From NCBI GenBank assembly GCA_021324155.1, contig JAJPJQ010000051.1, positions 199,293 through 263,292 on the forward strand: DNA of 64,000 bases. The letters run 5' to 3'. This DNA is from Pseudomonadota bacterium. GTDB lineage: Bacteria > Desulfobacterota > Binatia > UBA9968. Within the stretch, counting starts at the first letter, position 1; every line of letters begins with the position of its first letter. Below are positions 2,180-58,660 of this stretch, piece by piece. The notes under the pieces were generated by a model, which saw only the letters and a list, made by a program, of their open reading frames with translations, was not told the origin of the DNA and did no database searches. Position numbers and translations under genes: made by a program.

Positions 2180-3160
2180 CTATCTCCCCACTCCCAGCTC
2201 CTTCTGCACTTCCCGCAGCACGGAGAAGTCCACGACCTTATTGATCGGCGGCGGGTCTTTGAGCTGCATCGGCGCGGTGATCGTAAGCTCGATGTTTTGC
2301 TTGAGCGATTCCTCGCTCGCGCCGCCGGGATCGCGCGGATCGATCGCGCGCACGGACACCGCCGACGCGCTCTCGGCGACGTCGCGCGGGTGCTTGAACT
2401 CGCGCATCGCGATCTTGATCGTCTCCTCGCGGTTCTTCAGCATGAGCTGGAGCGAGCGCACCATCGCTCGCGTCCAACGCTTGATCTTGCCGCGCTCGTG
2501 TGTGAGCTTGGCTTCGCTCGTCGCGTAGCCCGCCCACGGCCACGCGCCGATATCGGCGAGCGACGCCAATTCGGTAAAGCCTTTTTTCTTTAAAATAAAC
2601 GCGGCGTCTGGATTGAACGCGCGCGCCTGGATGATTCCCTGCTGCATCGCCTGGACGGCGGTCTCGGCGCCGCCGGCGGAAAAATAGGTCACGTCCTTTT
2701 TGGGATTCAGACCGTAGTGCTCGAGCACCATCGCCGAGGCGATCTCGGTGCTGCCGCCGGGCGCGGTGATGCCGATCACTTTGCCCTTTAAGTCCTGTAC
2801 GCGCTTGATCTCGGGCGCGCCCACCAGAACGAACGTGCAGCGCTGGTGCGTGAAGAAGATCGCCTTCAACGGCGCGCCGCGGGTCGCCGCGCGCATCGCC
2901 GAGCCGGCGGCGCCGGCGACGTCGATCTCGCCGGCCATGAGCGCCGTCACCACGACGTTGGTGTTGACGACGAGCCACTGCACGTCGAGCCCTTCGTCCT
3001 TGAAGAAGCCCGCGCGCATGCCGACGAAGAGCGGCAGGTAGCCGTAGTCTTTGGTCGAGAGCGCGACGCGGATGCGCTCGAGCGCCGAGGCGGCGCGGGC
3101 CGGAGCGGAGGCGAGCGCGACAAGCGCGAGCGCGGCGGCGAACGCTGCGAGAAATTTCAT
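2180..3160 (-). CDS. ABC-type substrate-binding protein, NMT1/THI5 (SsuA/TauA-like) family
   Basis: ORF 2180..3271 trimmed to the internal Met at 3158-3160 (MKFLAAFAAALALVALASAPARA signal peptide). The upstream 37 codons lack protein-like character. Paralog of 761..1717. Confidence 0.7.
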   Translation of the reverse strand: MKFLAAFAAALALVALASAPARAASALERIRVALSTKDYGYLPLFVGMRAGFFKDEGLDVQWLVVNTNVVVTALMAGEIDVAGAAGSAMRAATRGAPLKAIFFTHQRCTFVLVGAPEIKRVQDLKGKVIGITAPGGSTEIASAMVLEHYGLNPKKDVTYFSAGGAETAVQAMQQGIIQARAFNPDAAFILKKKGFTELASLADIGAWPWAGYATSEAKLTHERGKIKRWTRAMVRSLQLMLKNREETIKIAMREFKHPRDVAESASAVSVRAIDPRDPGGASEESLKQNIELTITAPMQLKDPPPINKVVDFSVLREVQKELGVGR

Positions 3161-4602: not shown

Positions 4603-6444
4603 TCATTCCCCGCCCTGCGCCCATTCGTCGAACTCTTCCAGACCGAGGCGCTGCAGCGTGTCCCTGAACGGCCGGCCGCTGCGCTCGTGGCGGCCGGTCA
4701 GGCGGTAGTATTCGAAAATCAAATCGGGCAGCCACTTCGCGATCGTGAAGCCCTGATATTTTCCATCCGGGATCGGCTCCAGAAATCGCGGCCCGACGTT
4801 CTTCCAGTCGTCGTCGGCGATCCAGCCGCGCTGCGTCGCGAAGATGCTCTGGAGCATCACGCTGCGATGGCCGGCGGCCATCGCGTCGTCCATTGTAAAA
4901 TTCCAGCCGGTGACCGCGTTCAGCGCGTCGATGACGCAGGTAAGGCCATCGGGCTTGTGGTGCGTCAGCGCGAACCAGCAGCCGCCGAAAATACCGGTGA
5001 ACTGCCGGTATTGCTCCGACAGCATATGCGAGCGCGCCCAGCCGTCGGGCGCGTTGTCGTCGAGCGGTCCCCATTTTTCCTTGTCGCGCAGGTCCGGCGG
5101 CGGCTTGGCCGAGCCGCCGCCCTGTGGCTTCATGCCGCCGGAAGCGACCAGCTCGCGCAGCATCTCGCCGAGCTTCGGACGCCACTCGTGCATCGCCGGC
5201 GTGCCGCCTTTGGTGTGCACCGCCCAATTCGGCGCGTCGCCGCCGATCGCCTCGGCGGTCTGCTTCGGCCCTTCGGCGAGGAGATTGCCGAGCCAGCCCT
5301 CGCGGCGCGCCGCCATGTCGAGCAATTTCTCCACCGCTTCGGCGTTGCCCCATTCGAGACGCAAGCCGTTCGTCTGCTCCGGGCCGAGCAGCCCCTTTTC
5401 CCATGCCTCAAAGGCGACGCCGGCGCCGCACGAAAAGTGGCTGCACTCGATGCCGAGGTCGTTGATCTTCTCGGCGAGATAGAGCGCCGCGTTTCCGCGC
5501 ACGCCGAGATTGAAAAACGTGTCGAGCCATTCGCCGCCCGCGTTGAAACGGACCGTGGTGCCTTTGTAAGGGCCCTCGCCCAGCTTCGCATCCCACGGGC
5601 AGAGCCGCTGGCATTGAAAGCACGGGCGCAGCACGACGTCGTTCTTGTCGAAACCCGCGATATGGCTCGGGTCGAGCTCGGTGCTGCGCCAGTTGTAGTT
5701 ATTGAGCGCGCCCCAAGCGTCGCCGTGGCCGTACTTCGTCTTCTTTTTCTTGACATCGTGCGGTTGCAGGACCGAGCGCCAGCGCTGCCCGGCGTCGATG
5801 AGCTTTGCCTTATCGGCGAGCCGCGGGCGCGCCGTGCCGCTGACGACGATCGCCTTCAATTTTTTCGAGCCGAACACCGCGCCGCCGCTGTGCGCCGCGA
5901 AATGATTGTAGTCGTTCGCCAGCATCGCCGCGCGGTTGAGATTTTCGCCGGCCGGCCCGATGCAGAGGACGCGCGCGTCCTTGATGCCCACTTCCTCGCG
6001 GAGCGCGTCCTCCGTCGCGCGCGTGCCGAGTCCCCAGACTCTGGAGGCGTCGCGCAGCTCAGCGACGCCGTCGTGGATGTAAAGATAGCTGGGGCGCGAA
6101 GCGGCGCCGCTCAGAATGATGCCGTCGTAGCCCGCGGCCTTGAGATAGGTGCCCCAAAAACCGCTCGTCGCGCCGCGCCCGAGCGAATAGTTCGTCAGCG
6201 GGCTCAGATAGACGGCCGTCATCTTGGTGCCGCCGGGCGTGAAGCCGTTGCCCGTGATGGGCCCGGTCATCAAAACGACCCGGCTCTCCGGGTCGAAGGG
6301 CTTCGCGTCGACCGGCGTTTCTTTGAGCAGGATATAGGTCGCGAGCGCCTGGCCGCCAATAAATTTTTTTAAGACATCGTTTTCCGGCAGGTTCTCGTCG
6401 CTGAGCTCGCCGGACGTGAGGTCCGCGCGGAGGATTTTCCCCAT
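4603..6444 (-). CDS. aldehyde:ferredoxin oxidoreductase family (tungsten/molybdopterin) enzyme
   Basis: ORF 4603..6495 trimmed to the internal Met giving MGKILRADLTSGE..., a typical AOR N-terminus. Contains a CxxCxxxC cluster (RPCFQCQRLCPWD) and ~610 aa length. Antisense ORF 4486..6372 rejected. Confidence 0.8.
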   Translation of the reverse strand: MGKILRADLTSGELSDENLPENDVLKKFIGGQALATYILLKETPVDAKPFDPESRVVLMTGPITGNGFTPGGTKMTAVYLSPLTNYSLGRGATSGFWGTYLKAAGYDGIILSGAASRPSYLYIHDGVAELRDASRVWGLGTRATEDALREEVGIKDARVLCIGPAGENLNRAAMLANDYNHFAAHSGGAVFGSKKLKAIVVSGTARPRLADKAKLIDAGQRWRSVLQPHDVKKKKTKYGHGDAWGALNNYNWRSTELDPSHIAGFDKNDVVLRPCFQCQRLCPWDAKLGEGPYKGTTVRFNAGGEWLDTFFNLGVRGNAALYLAEKINDLGIECSHFSCGAGVAFEAWEKGLLGPEQTNGLRLEWGNAEAVEKLLDMAARREGWLGNLLAEGPKQTAEAIGGDAPNWAVHTKGGTPAMHEWRPKLGEMLRELVASGGMKPQGGGSAKPPPDLRDKEKWGPLDDNAPDGWARSHMLSEQYRQFTGIFGGCWFALTHHKPDGLTCVIDALNAVTGWNFTMDDAMAAGHRSVMLQSIFATQRGWIADDDWKNVGPRFLEPIPDGKYQGFTIAKWLPDLIFEYYRLTGRHERSGRPFRDTLQRLGLEEFDEWAQGGE

Positions 6445-9684: not shown

Positions 9685-10689
9685 TCAGCCTTCGCCGATG
9701 CGCCGGATCGCGATACCGAGCGCGCGCGACGCATTGCCTTCGAGGATGGCGCGGCGCTCGTCGGCGGTGATGGCGAGCTGCGCGATACGCGCGACCGGAT
9801 CGAAATCGCCCATCGCCATCGGGTAGTCCGTGCCGATTACGACGCGGTCGGCGCCGACTGTGCGGACCAAATACGCGAGCGCAGCGGCGGAATGAACGAT
9901 CGTGTCGTAATAGAATCGCGCGAGATATTCCGAAGGCTTCTTGTCGATGTGTTTTCTCAATTCGGCGCGCACGCCGTAGGCGTGATCGAGCCGCCAGATG
10001 TTGAACGCCAGCAGGCCGCCGCCATGCGAGAGACAGAGCCGTAAATTTTGATACTTCTCGAAAAGTCCTTTTAATATCAGACGCTCGATCATGAGCGTCG
10101 TCCGATACGGGAACTGAACGACGTTTCCCAGCATCGCGTTGACCGGATCGTCCATGTCGATGCCATCTTCCGTCGGGTGGACGAACAGCAAGAGGTCGAG
10201 TGCTTGCGCCGCCTCGAAGAACGGCTCGAAAACAGGATCGTCGAGCTGCTTGTCGCCGACCGCCGTCCCAATCTCAAGACCCTTAAGACCGATGCGCTTC
10301 GCGTGATCGGCGACGGCGATCGCTTCGCCCACGTCCTGCAGCGGCACGCTGCCGAAGCCGACGAACCGCTCGGGATATTTTCCGGCGACGGCGCGGATCG
10401 CCTCGTTCTGAAGCCGCGAGAAATATCCCGCAGCGGCTGGGTCGTCCCAGTAAAACAGCATGATCGGCGAAGGCGAAAGCGCCTGGAGATCGATCTGCAT
10501 GCGGTCGAGCTCGCCGAGGCGCACGGCCCCGTCGTACATGGCGGCGGTGAGATTCGCGCGAACTCCGCCGCCGGACTTGATGGTCAAGCGGCCGCCGGCG
10601 AGGTCGGCGGTGGGCGCCTTGTCGCGGAATTTACTCGCGCTTTGAAACGCTTCGATGGGGAAAAAATGCGAGTGCAGATCGATGTTCAT
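9685..10689 (-). CDS. amidohydrolase-2 family protein (ACMSD-like metal-dependent hydrolase/decarboxylase)
   Basis: 334-aa ORF. MNIDLHSHFFP N-terminus (HxH) plus later FVHP, LSHGGG and GTDYP motifs match the PF04909 architecture. Confidence 0.75.
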   Translation of the reverse strand: MNIDLHSHFFPIEAFQSASKFRDKAPTADLAGGRLTIKSGGGVRANLTAAMYDGAVRLGELDRMQIDLQALSPSPIMLFYWDDPAAAGYFSRLQNEAIRAVAGKYPERFVGFGSVPLQDVGEAIAVADHAKRIGLKGLEIGTAVGDKQLDDPVFEPFFEAAQALDLLLFVHPTEDGIDMDDPVNAMLGNVVQFPYRTTLMIERLILKGLFEKYQNLRLCLSHGGGLLAFNIWRLDHAYGVRAELRKHIDKKPSEYLARFYYDTIVHSAAALAYLVRTVGADRVVIGTDYPMAMGDFDPVARIAQLAITADERRAILEGNASRALGIAIRRIGEG

Positions 10690-12232: not shown

Positions 12233-12251
12233 ACCCGCACATCGCGCAATA

Positions 12252-12286
12252 AAAAAGGCCCGGATCTCTCGATCCGGGCCTTTTTG
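12252..12286. terminator. bidirectional rho-independent terminator between convergent genes
   Basis: GGCCCGGATC-TCTC-GATCCGGGCC perfect 10-bp stem with A-run upstream and T-run downstream (aaaaaaGGCCCGGATCtctcGATCCGGGCCtttttgttt). Confidence 0.75.
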
Positions 12287-12303
12287 TTTGGTCTGTGACT
12301 GTT

Positions 12304-17769: not shown

Positions 17770-18939
17770 TCAGCTCCACAATTGTTTGCTCGCGATGCGC
17801 GCGCCCTCGGCCATCGCTTTGAACTTGGCCCATACGACGGTTGGATGAATTTCTGGTTCAGCGGTCGCCTGCGAGGAGAAGCCGCAGTCGCTGCCGGCCA
17901 TGACATTCTCGCGCCCGACGATTTTGGCGTAACGCACGAGTCGCTCGGCAACGACCTCGGGATGCTCGACGATATTCGTCGTGTGGCTGATGACGCCGGG
18001 GATGATAATCTTTCCTTCCGGCAGCTTGATAGTTTCCCACACGCGCCATTCGTGCTCGTGGCGCGGATTGGCACCCTCGAACGAAAACGCGCCGGCTTTG
18101 ACGCGCAGCATGATATCGGCGATGTCTTTCAACCCGAGGTCGTGAATCCGCGGGCCGATGTTGATGCCGTAGCAAGTGTGGAAGCGGATTTTCTCCGGCG
18201 GAATGTCGCGCAGCGCGTGATTCAGCGCTTCGACGCGCAGGTCGGCCCATTGGCGGCTCTGCTCGACGGACTTGCTGGGATTCGCGTTGTAATACGACAC
18301 CAGGCGGGGGTCGTCGACTTGCAGCAACAAGCCGGCCGCGACGATCGCCTGATACTCCTCGCGCATCGCGTCCGCGATCGCGTAAATGTACGCCTCATCG
18401 TTAGGATAATATTCGTTCTTCCTTTGCGCCTCGATGTTTCCCGGCGAGGTCGAAGGCATAAACGCTTCCTCGACCTTCACGCCGTTCAAAGCAGCCTTGA
18501 AATTTTCGATGTCACGCTTGAGCGTCTCGTGGCCCTTGTAGGTCACGGGGCCGGTACAAAACAGCCCACTGGTGGATGAGACGGACTCGCCGCGCAACCG
18601 CGAATACCATGCGTAATACTCGGGAAAGTCCGCGATCTCGCGCGAGGCAACCCACGGCCCGGCGCGCGGCGGCGCCGGCCGCTGTTCGAATCCGGTGAGG
18701 CGCTCGCCGATGTAAGTGACGAAGCCGGGTTTCCCCTGCTCGCCGTCGCTCACGACATCGACGCCCGCCTCCGACTGGCGGCGCACGACGTCATTCACGG
18801 CACTGCGAACTTGCGCCTCGAATACCTGGCTGTCGTAGGGCCGGCCGCTCTCCTTGGCCGTCATCGTTGCGATCAGGTCCGCCGGCCGCGCCAGGCTGCC
18901 GACGAAGGTGGTCAGGATTCGACCGCTGCTCCGTTTCAT
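17770..18939 (-). CDS. cobalamin-independent methionine synthase (MetE) C-terminal-domain-like zinc methyltransferase
   Basis: ORF 17770..18999 trimmed to MKRSSGRIL. FHTCYG (His-x-Cys) and SDCGFS Cys motifs match the MetE/UroD-like zinc site. ~390 aa. Confidence 0.65.
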   Translation of the reverse strand: MKRSSGRILTTFVGSLARPADLIATMTAKESGRPYDSQVFEAQVRSAVNDVVRRQSEAGVDVVSDGEQGKPGFVTYIGERLTGFEQRPAPPRAGPWVASREIADFPEYYAWYSRLRGESVSSTSGLFCTGPVTYKGHETLKRDIENFKAALNGVKVEEAFMPSTSPGNIEAQRKNEYYPNDEAYIYAIADAMREEYQAIVAAGLLLQVDDPRLVSYYNANPSKSVEQSRQWADLRVEALNHALRDIPPEKIRFHTCYGINIGPRIHDLGLKDIADIMLRVKAGAFSFEGANPRHEHEWRVWETIKLPEGKIIIPGVISHTTNIVEHPEVVAERLVRYAKIVGRENVMAGSDCGFSSQATAEPEIHPTVVWAKFKAMAEGARIASKQLWS

Positions 18940-19117
18940 TTTGGATCCTTTCCAGTTAGTTTGCGCGCGGGCGCGCGCCGCCTTTGACGCATAGTCCATC
19001 GCGCGCTGCGGGTCAATGTTGACCGCCGCTTGACCCTTTCGGCTCGGGGATAGTAGACGACGACATGCCGGCCGTTCGGCTGATCACGTTGACGAGCGAT
19101 CTCCGGGGCCGCGGCGC
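18912..19117. repeat. direct repeat copy 1 (206 bp) of the divergent promoter/5' region
   Basis: ~96% identical to 20150..20355 with 7 differences. Contains the intact ATG of the MetE-like gene and a truncated start of the divergently oriented gene (MPAVRLITLTSDLRGRGAKK*). Confidence 0.85.
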
Positions 19118-19177: not shown

Positions 19178-19246
19178 CTCATACCGCGCCGTCCGCGCAT
19201 CGCTACTGGCGGACTAGCTTACCACGTGCTCAACCGGCGCGTCGGC
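19178..19246 (+). pseudogene. IS200/IS605-like (Y1 / REP-associated tyrosine transposase) N-terminal remnant
   Basis: The frame of ORF 19142..19417 reads IPRRPRIATGGLAYHVLNRRVGR. This matches the hallmark N-terminus of IS200-like TnpA/RAYT (M.R.PRI...G..YHV..R.N.R). The expected start is ATA, and similarity is lost after ~25 codons. Confidence 0.45.
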
Positions 19247-19519: not shown

Positions 19520-20023
19520 TCAACAGCGATCCGAAAGTCGGAGACCCGAGAGTCGGGCCGTCGAAAGCTTCAGGTGACTATGCAGACCTCCGATGACGGC
19601 CGCCCGCTCCATCAAAGCCGTCAATTGTCCTTCGTGCGCCACCTCGAAGAGCAGAATGGACGCGAGACGCAGCTGATTTTCTGCAACGTAGGCACGCAGC
19701 TGCTCGTCGCTCCCGATCTTCCAGATGCGTCCGAAAGCACGCATCACCGCAAGGACAGTAGGTGCTACGTCGGAAAGACCGGCTGTATCGAGGAGCTTCG
19801 GAAGCGACTCTGGCGATTCTTCATGAACCAAAGCGGTTAACCTTAACGCGATGATTTCCGCATAGTCCTTATCGGCGGCCGTCTCTACGCGCCGGTAAAC
19901 CTCGCCTATATGCTCGAAGAGTTTCACCGGAAATTTTCCAAGCCGACTCCCGGCGGCGGCGCTGGCGATACTCGAATACGAGCCGGGTCGCGAAATCAGT
20001 TGTCGAAGGTCCGAATCACTCAT
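19520..20023 (-). CDS. hypothetical protein carried on the insert
   Basis: 167-aa ORF, lower GC, no family recognised. The only intact ORF inside the repeat-bracketed insert. Confidence 0.35.
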   Translation of the reverse strand: MSDSDLRQLISRPGSYSSIASAAAGSRLGKFPVKLFEHIGEVYRRVETAADKDYAEIIALRLTALVHEESPESLPKLLDTAGLSDVAPTVLAVMRAFGRIWKIGSDEQLRAYVAENQLRLASILLFEVAHEGQLTALMERAAVIGGLHSHLKLSTARLSGLRLSDRC

Positions 20024-20149: not shown

Positions 20150-20355
20150 TCAGGATTCGACCGCTGCTCCGTTTCGTTTTGGATCCTTTTCAGTTAGTTT
20201 GCGCGCGGGCGCGCGCCACCTTTGACGCATAGTCCATCGCGCGCTGCGGGTCAATGTTGACCGCCGCTTGACCCATTCGGCTCCGGGATAGTAGACGACG
20301 ACATGCCGGCCGTTCGGCTGATCAAGTTGACGAGCGATCTCCGGGGCGCGGCGCG
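20150..20355. repeat. direct repeat copy 2 (206 bp)
   Basis: Copy of 18912..19117. Here the MetE-like start is degenerate (ATG->ACG on the minus strand), and the divergent gene 20303..21910 is intact. Confidence 0.85.
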
Positions 20356-21910: not shown

Positions 21911-21963
21911 GCCGCGCGTTAATTTGACACGGCGGCTTAATAAATTTATACATAGTTATCTTT

Positions 21964-22056
21964 AAGGGCGATGGGGTTCGCCAGCTAAACCATTCGCCGC
22001 GGTTCGCGAATTGATGACCCCTACTTCAAGGAATTGGAGTAGGGGTCTTTTTTTTG
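21964..22056 (+). promoter_or_regulatory. fluoride riboswitch (crcB motif) with intrinsic terminator
   Basis: GGGCGATGGGGTTCGCC...AAACC...CGCC...ATTGATGACCCCTAC matches the fluoride aptamer consensus (GGCGATGG.G.TCGCC / AAAC / CTGATGxCCTCTAC). The terminator stem CCCCTAC...GTAGGGG plus T8 overlaps the aptamer 3' end. RBS GGAGG and ATG follow. Confidence 0.8.
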
Positions 22057-22066
22057 GAGGTGGTAA

Positions 22067-22441
22067 ATGGCTCAGATCGCAGCGGTAGGCGTGGGGGGTT
22101 TTCTCGGTTCGATACTTCGGTATCTTCTCAGCGGATGGGTTCACCGGACGCTGGCGAGCGATTGGTTCCCCTATGGCACACTCGCAGTCAACGTCATCGG
22201 CTGTCTGCTCATCGGATTTTTAGCGGGAGTGGAAGAAAAACACGCCGTCTTCACGGCGGACGTTCGCCTATTTATTTTCATCGGAATCGTAGGAGGTTTT
22301 ACTACATTTTCAGCGTTCGCGTATGAAACCGTTCTGTTAGCGCGCAATGCTCAACTGCTGACTGCATTCGCGAACGTGCTTGTCGAGCTTACGGCGGGAT
22401 TATTCGCGGTCGGCATCGGTCACTGGCTGAGTCGCTTTTAG
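22067..22441 (+). CDS. crcB: fluoride ion channel CrcB/Fluc
   Basis: 124-aa four-TM protein with GGFLGSILRY and GGFTTFSAF signature motifs. It directly follows the riboswitch. Confidence 0.85.
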   Translation: MAQIAAVGVGGFLGSILRYLLSGWVHRTLASDWFPYGTLAVNVIGCLLIGFLAGVEEKHAVFTADVRLFIFIGIVGGFTTFSAFAYETVLLARNAQLLTAFANVLVELTAGLFAVGIGHWLSRF

Positions 22442-24404: not shown

Positions 24405-24497
24405 TCCTAAAAACGTTTCACGTTTCGCGTCGCAAGTTTCACGTACCGGAGCGCTCTCTGATTTCGACCTGAACCTGAAACGTGAAACCTGTAACCA
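24405..24497. repeat. GTTTCACGTTTC / GAAACGTGAAAC hairpin element (family member 1)
   Basis: 12-bp perfect inverted arms GTTTCACGTTTC (24411-22) and GAAACGTGAAAC (24478-89) with additional partial pairing. On the transcribed (minus) strand it is followed by GTTTTT and then the RBS of the TenA-like gene. Confidence 0.6.
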
Positions 24498-25218: not shown

Positions 25219-25253
25219 ATCTATGCGTCCCGCCCGGATACTGTCAAGACGAG

Positions 25254-25296
25254 TTGATTGGGTTTGTAGGGTTGATTGAGTTGTTTGGGTTGAATT
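25254..25296. promoter_or_regulatory. direct TTGATTG repeats in the divergent promoter
   Basis: gagTTGATTGggtttgtagggTTGATTGagttgtttgggTTGAATTcg lies between divergent genes 24499..25218 (-) and 25415..26410 (+). Confidence 0.3.
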
Positions 25297-27473: not shown

Positions 27474-27475
27474 CT

Positions 27476-27552
27476 TTCAAGTTTTTAGTTTCGAGTTTCA
27501 CGAAAGAGCATCGATGGTCAACTTGGAACCTGAAACCTGAAACGTTTTTTTT
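27476..27552 (+). terminator. GTTTCGAGTTTCA / GAAACCTGAAAC hairpin plus T9 (family member 2): intercistronic terminator/attenuator
   Basis: tagGTTTCGAGTTTCAcgaaag...ggaaccTGAAACCTGAAACgttttttttt lies between the TAXI receptor stop (27473) and the permease start (27562). Confidence 0.65.
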
Positions 27553-35170: not shown

Positions 35171-35258
35171 TCCGAATAGCTTTCAGCAATCAGCTATCAG
35201 CAGTCAGCTAGAAAAATCCGTCCCGGATTTCCCGAGCTGAAAGCTGATCGCTGATTGC
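35171..35258. repeat. 27-bp imperfect inverted repeat built from TCAGCNN heptads, 31-nt spacer
   Basis: Plus-strand arm TCAGCAATCAGCTATCAGCAGTCAGCT (35177-35203). Its reverse-complement partner (AGCTGAAAGCTGATCGCTGATTGCTGA) lies at 35228-35254 and reads TCAGCAATCAGCGATCAGCTTTCAGCT on the minus (transcribed) strand, with 3 mismatches. Each arm is four tandem TCAGCNN units. It sits between the TPP enzyme stop and the cytochrome c RBS. Confidence 0.6.
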
Positions 35259-35268
35259 TGACGGCTTC

Positions 35269-47298: not shown

Positions 47299-47332
47299 TG
47301 CTGTTTCGGACTTTTACGTTTCACCTTGCCTT

Positions 47333-56901: not shown

Positions 56902-56968
56902 GTTTCGGTTTTCGCGTTTCGAGTTTCGTGTCGCCCGGAATCCGAACCCGGAACTCGAAACTGGTCGA
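56902..56968. repeat. GTTTCGAGTTTCG / GGAACTCGAAAC hairpin element (family member 3)
   Basis: gtttcggttttcgcGTTTCGAGTTTCGtgtcgcccggaatccgaacccgGAACTCGAAACtgg lies directly after the DUF885 stop. It shares the GTTTCGAGTTTC core with the elements at 24405 and 27476. Confidence 0.55.
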
Positions 56969-58621: not shown

Positions 58622-58624
58622 AAA

Positions 58625-58660
58625 AAATAGTTTCGAGTTGTGTGTTTCGAGTCTGATCGT
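58625..58660. repeat. GTTTCGAG tandem element (family member 4)
   Basis: aaaaaataGTTTCGAGttgtgtGTTTCGAGtctg. On the minus strand it reads CTCGAAAC..CTCGAAACTATTTTTT after the stop of 58661..59215. Confidence 0.45.

Follow-up and report, generated by a model that had tools for sequence, protein, structure and literature searches.

A general excess of heptamer simple sequence repeats in bacteria goes back to Mrazek et al. 2007 (as cited in PMC4692102), and the geometry of DNA polymerase has been suggested to favour slippage by 7 nt (again as cited in PMC4692102). Rehm et al. 2015 described the heptamer repeats GGGAATC in Xanthomonas and GGGGAYT in Nostoc, which prefer four units and whose function is unknown (PMC4692102). 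These repeats lie between open reading frames (ORFs) that are aligned, at most about 50 bp from a stop codon, and are under-represented between divergent ORFs; some 70 inverted array pairs per genome could form stem-loops, unit number at the same locus varies between close relatives, and the detailed heptamer study linked the four-unit preference to G-quadruplexes (PMC4692102). Here we analyse a stretch of 64,000 nucleotides from a Binatia genome (GenBank assembly GCA_021324155.1, contig JAJPJQ010000051.1, positions 199,293 to 263,292), called the window throughout, in which short intergenic spacers carry tandem 7-nt units, mostly GTTTC-N-R, facing an inverted array of the same unit. Named homologues at 86-92% identity and syntenic contigs point to Candidatus Binatia as the probable origin of the window.

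Two further systems invite comparison. TAACTGA direct heptamers of unknown function occur in Beggiatoaceae, Cyanobacteria and Bacteroidetes; just upstream of start codons they have been proposed as S1, Csp or CsrA sites, and the arrays are almost all direct, with one inverted case in 170 (MacGregor 2015, PMC4679880). Repetitive extragenic palindromes (REPs), their bacterial interspersed mosaic elements (BIMEs) and the REP-associated tyrosine transposases (RAYTs) form the second system: REPs are dispersed, imperfect extragenic palindromes of 20-40 nt with a conserved GTAG/CGTC head, and termination and mRNA stabilisation are among their proposed roles (Di Nocera et al. 2013, PMC3733652).

The window holds five heptad elements, four built on GTTTC and a fifth on TCAGCNN. 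The architecture is a 7-nt one, a period of seven dominates the wider class irrespective of the unit, the GTTTC arm comes first, the elements sit behind genes in several phyla, and they turn over rapidly. The feature shared by the GTTTC sites is a tandem run of two to five GTTTC-N-R units, a loop and an inverted Y-N-GAAAC array, with site 4 reduced to the direct array. The original prediction had listed these four intergenic sites and defined them by a 12-13-nt core. All four cores were re-read where they had been placed, and the motif is indeed far above the expectation from base composition: GTTTCNNGTTTC has five matches in the window against 0.20 expected, and none of 100 shuffles reaches five. 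The exact 12-mer with up to two mismatches, however, has 14 matches against 7.7 expected, which is not significant alone. Hence the signal is GTTTC at 7-nt spacing rather than a 12-13-nt word, and the defining feature is a tandem 7-nt unit that itself varies, being TCAGCNN elsewhere in the window and any of dozens of sequences in other genomes.

The period was recovered independently. Tandem Repeats Finder reports period-7 arrays at sites 1, 2 and 3 (with 4.6 and 4.4 copies at site 1) and at 35178-35261, and a lag-7 self-identity of 0.41-0.67 marks exactly the element spacers among the roughly 45 spacers of the window. The fifth element, absent from the first list, was found by a scan allowing any unit sequence. 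Within these 64 kb the copies have only the heptad in common; their loops are unrelated and they share no body sequence. Neither GTTTCNR nor TCAGCNN contains G tracts of the kind a G-quadruplex needs.

To place the window copies in a wider class we scanned one genome per species for GTTTCNNGTTTC-N21-51-GAAACNNGAAAC and found at least 120 loci, almost all with more than the two units per arm that the pattern demanded. Among the loci listed, about 60 belong to Acidobacteriota (Pyrinomonadaceae, Terriglobales, Bryobacterales) and about 30 to Bacteroidota, 20 of these being Flavobacterium, with a few in Nitrospira, Verrucomicrobiota, Planctomycetota, Binatia and Chloroflexota. Over the same listed loci the unit consensus is G-T-T-T-C-N-R, with A the favoured base at N ahead of G, T and C; arms most often have four units (56/134 for each arm), and the two arrays are separated by a median of 24.5 nt. 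The 5-nt core matches in 95% of in-register unit pairs.

Arrays with three or more units were sorted by period over the 875 kb of loci fetched. Period 7 accounts for 285 arrays, as against 1, 15, 15, 25 and 5 at periods 5, 6, 8, 9 and 10, and 100 of the 285 contain no GTTTC. Inverted pairs of any doubled 5-mer behave alike, with 184 at period 7 (49 without GTTTC) and 3, 12, 7 and 1 at periods 6, 8, 9 and 10. The other period-7 units run to dozens in all (GTCAGTN, AATCGTN, CTAGCTN, AATGCGG, GGTGACA, CCAGTCT and TCAGCCR among them), and a single 8-kb locus may hold several. An inverted partner lies nearby for 170 of the 189 GTTTC arrays (about 90%) and for 58 of 106 other arrays (about half); 31 arrays have no partner arm.

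Polarity is marked. The GTTTC array stands ahead of the GAAAC array 142 times and behind it once; about 120 of the forward cases are uninformative because the seed pattern demanded that order, which leaves about 22 forward (about 17 extra copies within seeded loci and five in unseeded sequence) against one reverse. A U-rich arm in first place is not a general rule, since arms built of other units show no common T/A or pyrimidine bias. Among the units the tetranucleotides CTGA and ACTG are enriched about 2.5-fold, too weakly to survive multiple testing. The idea that the arrays supply backup stop codons in all three frames fails as a general rule. On direct reading, neither strand has a stop triplet in the GTTTCGR units at site 3, in site 2's second inverted unit or in the exact units at site 4, and the same goes for loci L011 and L044. 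A TGA does occur in the complementary arm at site 1 (GTTTCAC) and for the outer unit of site 2.

The elements are found at gene ends. Among the loci listed, 91 junctions are same-strand, 24 convergent and 11 divergent, with a median distance of 8 nt to the stop codon and 17 nt to the start codon. Normalised to spacer length, heptad arrays number 1.41 per kb in tandem, 1.48 in convergent and 0.57 in divergent spacers, the last being 2.5 times rarer. For many copies a start codon follows after 1-10 nt, and divergent spacers offer examples as well (e.g. L006). The expectation that instances elsewhere would be intergenic was borne out by the at least 120 loci, most of which lie just behind stops at same-strand or convergent junctions. 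In the window all five elements occupy short spacers between same-strand genes. The element begins 0-10 nt after the stop codon and is separated by 1-40 nt from the start codon, and the genes downstream have unrelated functions.

Table 1. Heptad elements of the window, with their arrays, cores and neighbouring genes.
Element	Position	Strand	Description	Arrays and T runs	Cores and heptads	Neighbouring genes
Site 1	24409..24497	minus	Heptad palindrome occupying the aldolase to haem-oxygenase-like gene spacer	Plus-strand reading: GTTTC-type 24415-24442; GAAAC-type 24467-24495. Sense strand: T5 (A5 at 24409-24413 on the plus strand), then Shine-Dalgarno AGGAGG (24403-08), then ATG (24398-96)	GTTTCACGTTTC at 24415-24426; GAAACGTGAAAC at 24477-24488	Class II aldolase gene, then gene for a haem-oxygenase-like/TenA protein
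Site 2	27474..27552	plus	Heptad palindrome followed by T8	27474-27500; 27525-27543; T8 27545-27552	GTTTCGAGTTTC at 27488-27499; GAAACCTGAAAC at 27532-27543; heptads CTTTCAA GTTTTTA GTTTCGA GTTTCAC ... TTGGAAC CTGAAAC CTGAAAC	TAXI-TRAP binding-protein gene (stop 27473), then DctQM permease gene (TTG 27562)
Site 3	56902..56962	plus	Four GTTTC-type heptads and a degenerate inverted arm, without T run	56902-56928; inverted arm 56934-56961	GTTTCGAGTTTCG at 56916-56928; GGAACTCGAAAC at 56950-56961; 5′ arm GTTTCGG TTTTCGC GTTTCGA GTTTCGT	Directly 3′ of the stop of a DUF885 gene; next gene, for a xylose-isomerase-like TIM-barrel protein, from 57001
Site 4	58622..58657	minus	Direct heptads only, without inverted arm; lag-7 identity 0.41	Heptads 58630-58657; T6 on the sense strand 58622-27	GTTTCGA GTTGTGT GTTTCGA GTCTGAT; two direct GTTTCGAG copies, 58630-37 and 58644-51, 14 nt apart	Unknown ORF upstream; T6 abuts the ATG of a VIT1-family gene
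Fifth element	35183..35261	minus	Near-perfect palindrome of TCAGCNN/NNGCTGA heptads, 4+4 units, 35-bp hairpin		Sense strand TCAGCAA TCAGCGA TCAGCTT TCAGCTC ... TAGCTGA CTGCTGA TAGCTGA TTGCTGA	TPP-enzyme gene (stop 35269), then Shine-Dalgarno and ATG of a small cytochrome-c-like ORF
Possible degenerate single-arm relic	47299..47332	minus	Two GTTTC 14 nt apart; weak; lag-7 identity 0.41			Entire 34-nt spacer between two same-strand genes

Comparison of orthologous junctions shows how quickly these structures change. Homologues of site 2 were collected from soil-metagenome relatives of the TAXI binding-protein gene. The element exists there in five versions with 4+3, 2+4, 3+4, about 2+2 and 2+1 units; loop remnant, T run and TTG start are the same in all of them. 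At 75-83% protein identity relatives lack the element and have just a 35-nt spacer, and more distant ones carry at this spot hairpins or arrays of GTTCAAG, of TGGAGTGA (period 8) or of NNTCAGC, or else TTGAAC/TGGAAC direct repeats. The closest relatives (haem-oxygenase-like protein 90-93% identical) do not have the hairpin of site 1. Their spacers, of 13-66 nt, make up a series that starts with GGATTAG-AAAGGAA (two units) and reaches five direct GGATTAG-like heptads, which indicates growth of heptad arrays in place out of local sequence; a further branch carries a TGGAGTNN hairpin. The series also shows that such junctions gain repeat-built structures again and again.

Some observations made alongside concern these relatives. 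The aldolase to haem-oxygenase spacers with five GGATTAG-like heptads (L165, L166) include Shine-Dalgarno-like GGA motifs, and closer relatives have only two heptads. Binatia-like relatives carry hairpins of 8-nt units (TGGAGTNN / NNACTCCA) at several junctions, namely at 9907-9965 and 15920-15990 of L171, at the same places in L172 and near 1160-1260 of L135; their unit number varies between near-identical contigs.

The closest described system is that of the Xanthomonas and Nostoc heptamers. In both cases tandem 7-nt units lie between genes near stop codons, are few in divergent spacers, most often number four and vary in number. In contrast to those repeats, GTTTCNR is A/T-rich and unable to form a G-quadruplex, arrays are as a rule paired in inverted orientation (170 of 189) and not just in a subset, the arms have a strict polarity, a genome holds many different units and the hosts belong to other phyla. 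As the four-unit preference exists in the GTTTC family without G tracts, the G-quadruplex explanation cannot be general. The TAACTGA repeats, and the cyanobacterial STRR heptamers reportedly described by Mazel et al. in 1990, share the 7-nt unit in two to six tandem copies, the intergenic position, the patchy occurrence across phyla and arrays that often end a few nucleotides before a start codon. Site 4 resembles them in geometry, running from direct heptads through TATTTTTT to the ATG, although its unit differs from TAACTGA; the other four window elements are inverted pairs, as is the norm for the GTTTC class.

The original prediction had suggested a dispersed REP/BIME-like family. The dispersal as intergenic palindromes sharing sequence, and a placement like that of REPs (behind stops, within operons, rare in divergent promoter spacers), bear this out in part, whereas the hallmarks in the sequence do not. 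Direct reading of the flanks found no GTAG/CGTC head at any of the five window elements, no common body sequence exists, and the arms are 14-35-nt heptad arrays of variable unit number. As for a miniature inverted-repeat transposable element (MITE), no target-site duplication is visible, length varies by heptads, and occupied and empty sites are not alignable base-for-base at their borders. The GTTTC family is best filed as an A/T-rich, polarity-defined, cross-phylum variant of heptamer-repeat palindromes, and not as REP/BIME. The papers we found describe neither the family nor its polarity, in a search that lay largely outside subscription journals, and searching for the repeat as a string or degenerate motif returned only unrelated eukaryotic matches. 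No Rfam 15 family matches the elements at gathering or E-value thresholds: the window gave only a tRNA and a fluoride riboswitch, sites 1 and 2 had no match at E<=10, and for typical copies from other genomes the sole matches, generic miRNA-precursor hairpins, score far below threshold. The consensus sequences and spacings of integron attC sites, CRISPR repeats and NarL 7-2-7 sites do not fit.

Inverted arms were predicted to form hairpins, or else tandem layouts, and here the sites differ. Inverted partners exist at sites 1 to 3 and direct copies only at site 4. Site 1 folds at -28.8 kcal/mol (z -2.9 against shuffles), site 4 has no stable fold, and the fifth element, at -52.3 kcal/mol and z -9.3, is by far the strongest hairpin of the window; two typical copies from other genomes gave z -5.5 and -9.6. 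Runs of T5, T8 and T6 follow directly on the sense strand of three of the four GTTTC sites (1, 2 and 4), with a chance probability of about 2e-6 computed from the rarity of such runs in window spacers. The T5 on the transcribed strand of site 1 was as first described, while the run at site 2 is T8 and not T9. Sites 1 and 2 combine hairpin and T run, site 4 has the run without a hairpin, and site 3 and the fifth element have a hairpin without a run. A terminator association fits this genome but not the class at large, of which about 10% carry a T run on either strand.

A typical intrinsic terminator has 5-14 G/C-rich pairs and a 3-8-nt loop. Sites 1 and 2 resemble one in having a stem-loop followed by T5 or T8 on the sense strand, 3′ of a stop codon. 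They differ in that the stems of the GTTTC sites are A/U-rich, long and interrupted around central regions of 25-50 nt, in place of a compact G/C-rich stem with a short loop; moreover the sites have sequence in common and most class members elsewhere have no T run. A consensus terminator scan of the window listed none of the GTTTC sites. The ordinary intrinsic terminators of the window look different, as at 12233-12303 and 22016-22047. The latter belongs to a fluoride riboswitch (21958-22030, plus strand; Rfam RF01734, 44.3 bits), which has a G/C-rich terminator with T8 and lies upstream of a 124-aa ORF (22067-22441).

Taken together, we propose that the sites are local copies of widespread, fast-evolving inverted heptamer-repeat palindromes, with arms most often of four units. 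Replication slippage in 7-nt steps would create and reshape the arrays where they stand, and the arms would be kept alike by one templating the other (quasi-palindrome correction) rather than by transposition or by one sequence-specific protein. When transcribed, an element would give a long A/U-rich hairpin between two cistrons, which may act as a leaky intrinsic terminator or as a structure protecting the 3′ end, possibly after processing by an RNase. As T5-T8 runs directly follow three of the four GTTTC copies, we infer that a leaky terminator or 3′-end hairpin is the most likely role. The effect would be to uncouple the expression of neighbouring genes, at site 2 for example giving more binding protein than TAXI-TRAP permease. 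We give slippage-built palindromes serving as leaky terminators or RNA-end hairpins about an even chance, the function being read from sequence and structure prediction.

Several results weigh against this proposal. The folds of sites 2 and 3 barely beat those of shuffled sequences (z -1.7 and -1.4). Selection on the sense-strand RNA left no sign: of 89 cases 47 are more stable as sense and 42 as antisense, the count of G.U pairs is 134 against 156, and the site 2 orthologues are mixed. Position 7 of the unit is Watson-Crick paired in only 57% of unit pairs, with G.T (54) and A.C (53) equally frequent and so no sign of RNA selection. Across the class T runs behind the 3′ arm are no more frequent on the sense than on the antisense strand, with 7 of 66 cases for the former and 8 of 66 for the latter in high-GC genomes. 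The run at sites 1 and 4 lies 1-12 nt from the next start codon, so that full termination there would silence the downstream gene. Slippage has difficulties of its own. Adjacent units are alike at position 7 less often than in shuffled arrays (z -4.1), whereas plain slippage yields identical neighbours, and fresh slippage alone therefore does not predict the arrays; units two apart are alike more often than in shuffles (z +2.8). Nor does slippage alone explain the GTTTC-first polarity, the peak at four units or the choice of seven. Finally, the gene contexts of the at least 120 loci come from our own ORF heuristic, although independent gene calls for loci L168 and L171 give the same placement.

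Because it leaves unexplained why seven, why four and why GTTTC first, the proposal keeps alive a rival in which a conserved factor reads arrays of binding sites in 7-nt steps and the hairpin is secondary. One candidate is an OB-fold RNA chaperone of the Csp/S1 type, seated one per heptamer on the U-rich 5′ arm and opening the hairpin, in antitermination or translation control. Another is RNase E, whose RN↓WUU preference R-G↓UUU fits, and a third is a DNA-binding ribbon-helix-helix protein of the kind of the omega repressor, whose targets are contiguous 7-bp heptads, be they direct or inverted. Such a reader would account for a 95% conserved core beside poorly complementary variable positions, for the arm polarity (142:1, informative about 22:1), for the sharp peak at four units and the same core in several phyla. 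It would equally suit copies that end 1-10 nt before a start codon even in divergent spacers, the single arms of site 4 and 31 other arrays, and the proposal that TAACTGA heptamers upstream of starts are S1/Csp/CsrA sites (PMC4679880). It sits poorly with dozens of unrelated units in the same genomes, several per 8 kb, with the absence of a common T/A or pyrimidine bias in arms of other units, and with arrays being just as frequent in convergent spacers, which offer no start codon. The different units found at one gene junction in relatives tell against it too, and for that reason the single global-regulator site of the original prediction is unlikely. We regard a unit-reading factor as rather unlikely, and its strong form, in which inverted heptad arrays are conserved, polarity-defined cis-elements read in 7-nt steps by a widespread factor that prefers GTTTCNR, as quite improbable.

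The same polarity and the peak at four, where a geometric decay would be expected, tell against a further explanation, that the elements are a functionless by-product of heptamer slippage and palindrome templating which survives where it is harmless, downstream of genes. So do the low likeness of adjacent units, the T runs fused to three of four copies (about 2e-6) and the T run kept in five site 2 homologues while the arms change. Fast turnover with close relatives lacking the elements, the in-place amplification series at the site 1 junction, the missing strand-specific wobble signal and the unrelated functions of the downstream genes are what it would lead one to expect; the deficit in divergent spacers could reflect selection against promoter disruption alone, and the heptamer excess has been ascribed to DNA polymerase geometry (as cited in PMC4692102). 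On balance we consider a mere by-product unlikely. Presence and absence at orthologous sites, together with the REP-like placement, would also suit a mobile element of the REP or MITE kind that a transposase, for instance a RAYT, has spread in trans. In Pyrinomonadaceae a common loop, GTTAAAGARC...TCAGAC, is present in both orientations in copies from unrelated loci, so that whole elements may to some extent have spread, and a short Y1-transposase-like peptide lies in the window at 19178-19246. That peptide has no Pfam match even at E<=10, the window copies lack head, visible target-site duplication and anything in common beyond the heptad, unit number varies among homologous copies, direct heptads grow in place, and the variety of units is too great for recognition by any one transposase. 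Mobility in trans is in our view very doubtful, and slippage in place, with a hairpin acting on RNA ends, remains our preferred account.

The bacterial 7-nt repeat excess has been reported since 2007 without an accepted cause (Mrazek et al., as cited in PMC4692102). Were the arrays read by a factor, this would supply a functional cause for the excess and a new, tunable device of intercistronic control. The arm polarity and the dominance of period 7 independent of unit sequence are constraints for any model. Culturable, genetically tractable Flavobacterium species carry the family, as do abundant soil phyla, which makes the question directly testable; F. reichenbachii DSM 21791 and F. aquidurense DSM 18293 are among the carriers. 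The elements occupy many operon junctions in Acidobacteriota, Bacteroidota and Binatia, which matters for operon and terminator prediction, and they are likely spots of assembly and annotation error.

Viral contigs, which we judged an uninformative background for bacterial chromosomes, contain GTTTC at period 7 in 18 loci, at period 6 in 10 and at period 8 in 12, with 4 for a permuted core. The reverse arm order occurs there in 45 loci, mostly with the same 64-nt match length and with 32 of the 45 from one sample. Dozens of phage contigs (L193-L236, sample 3300045988) have this 64-nt GAAACNNGAAAC...GTTTCNNGTTTC match; from match length and sample they are presumed to be near-duplicate contigs or one conserved locus of a phage family. 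The 8-kb Pyrinomonadaceae locus L006, which carries two GTTTC hairpins, has three Acido-Lenti-1 RNA matches above the Rfam gathering score (2977-3023, 5122-5167 and 5274-5319). Inverted heptad arrays lie 130-410 nt apart, instead of about 25, at L088 (1086-1111 with 1239-1264) and L095 (130-148 with 562-580), where they may bracket a small ORF or cassette.

In the window itself, the weak repeat at 47299-47332 may be a decayed single-arm heptad array. A period-9 array (GTTGATTGG, 4.6 copies) occupies 25253-25293 in the spacer from which the aldolase gene and a gene for an NMT1-family binding protein diverge. The decayed RAYT fragment, and its link to the elements, put forward in the original prediction could not be upheld: no RAYT gene was found within the 64-kb window, and the 23-residue peptide LIPRRPRIATGGLAYHVLNRRVG resembles a Y1-transposase N-terminus by eye only and lies 5 kb from the nearest element. 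Around it a 198-nt direct repeat (97% identical; 18912-19109 and 20150-20347) brackets a 1.24-kb segment that holds the peptide and an unannotated 167-aa ORF (19520-20023, minus strand). The segment resembles an insertion or a duplication, placed at the 5′ ends of a divergent gene pair.

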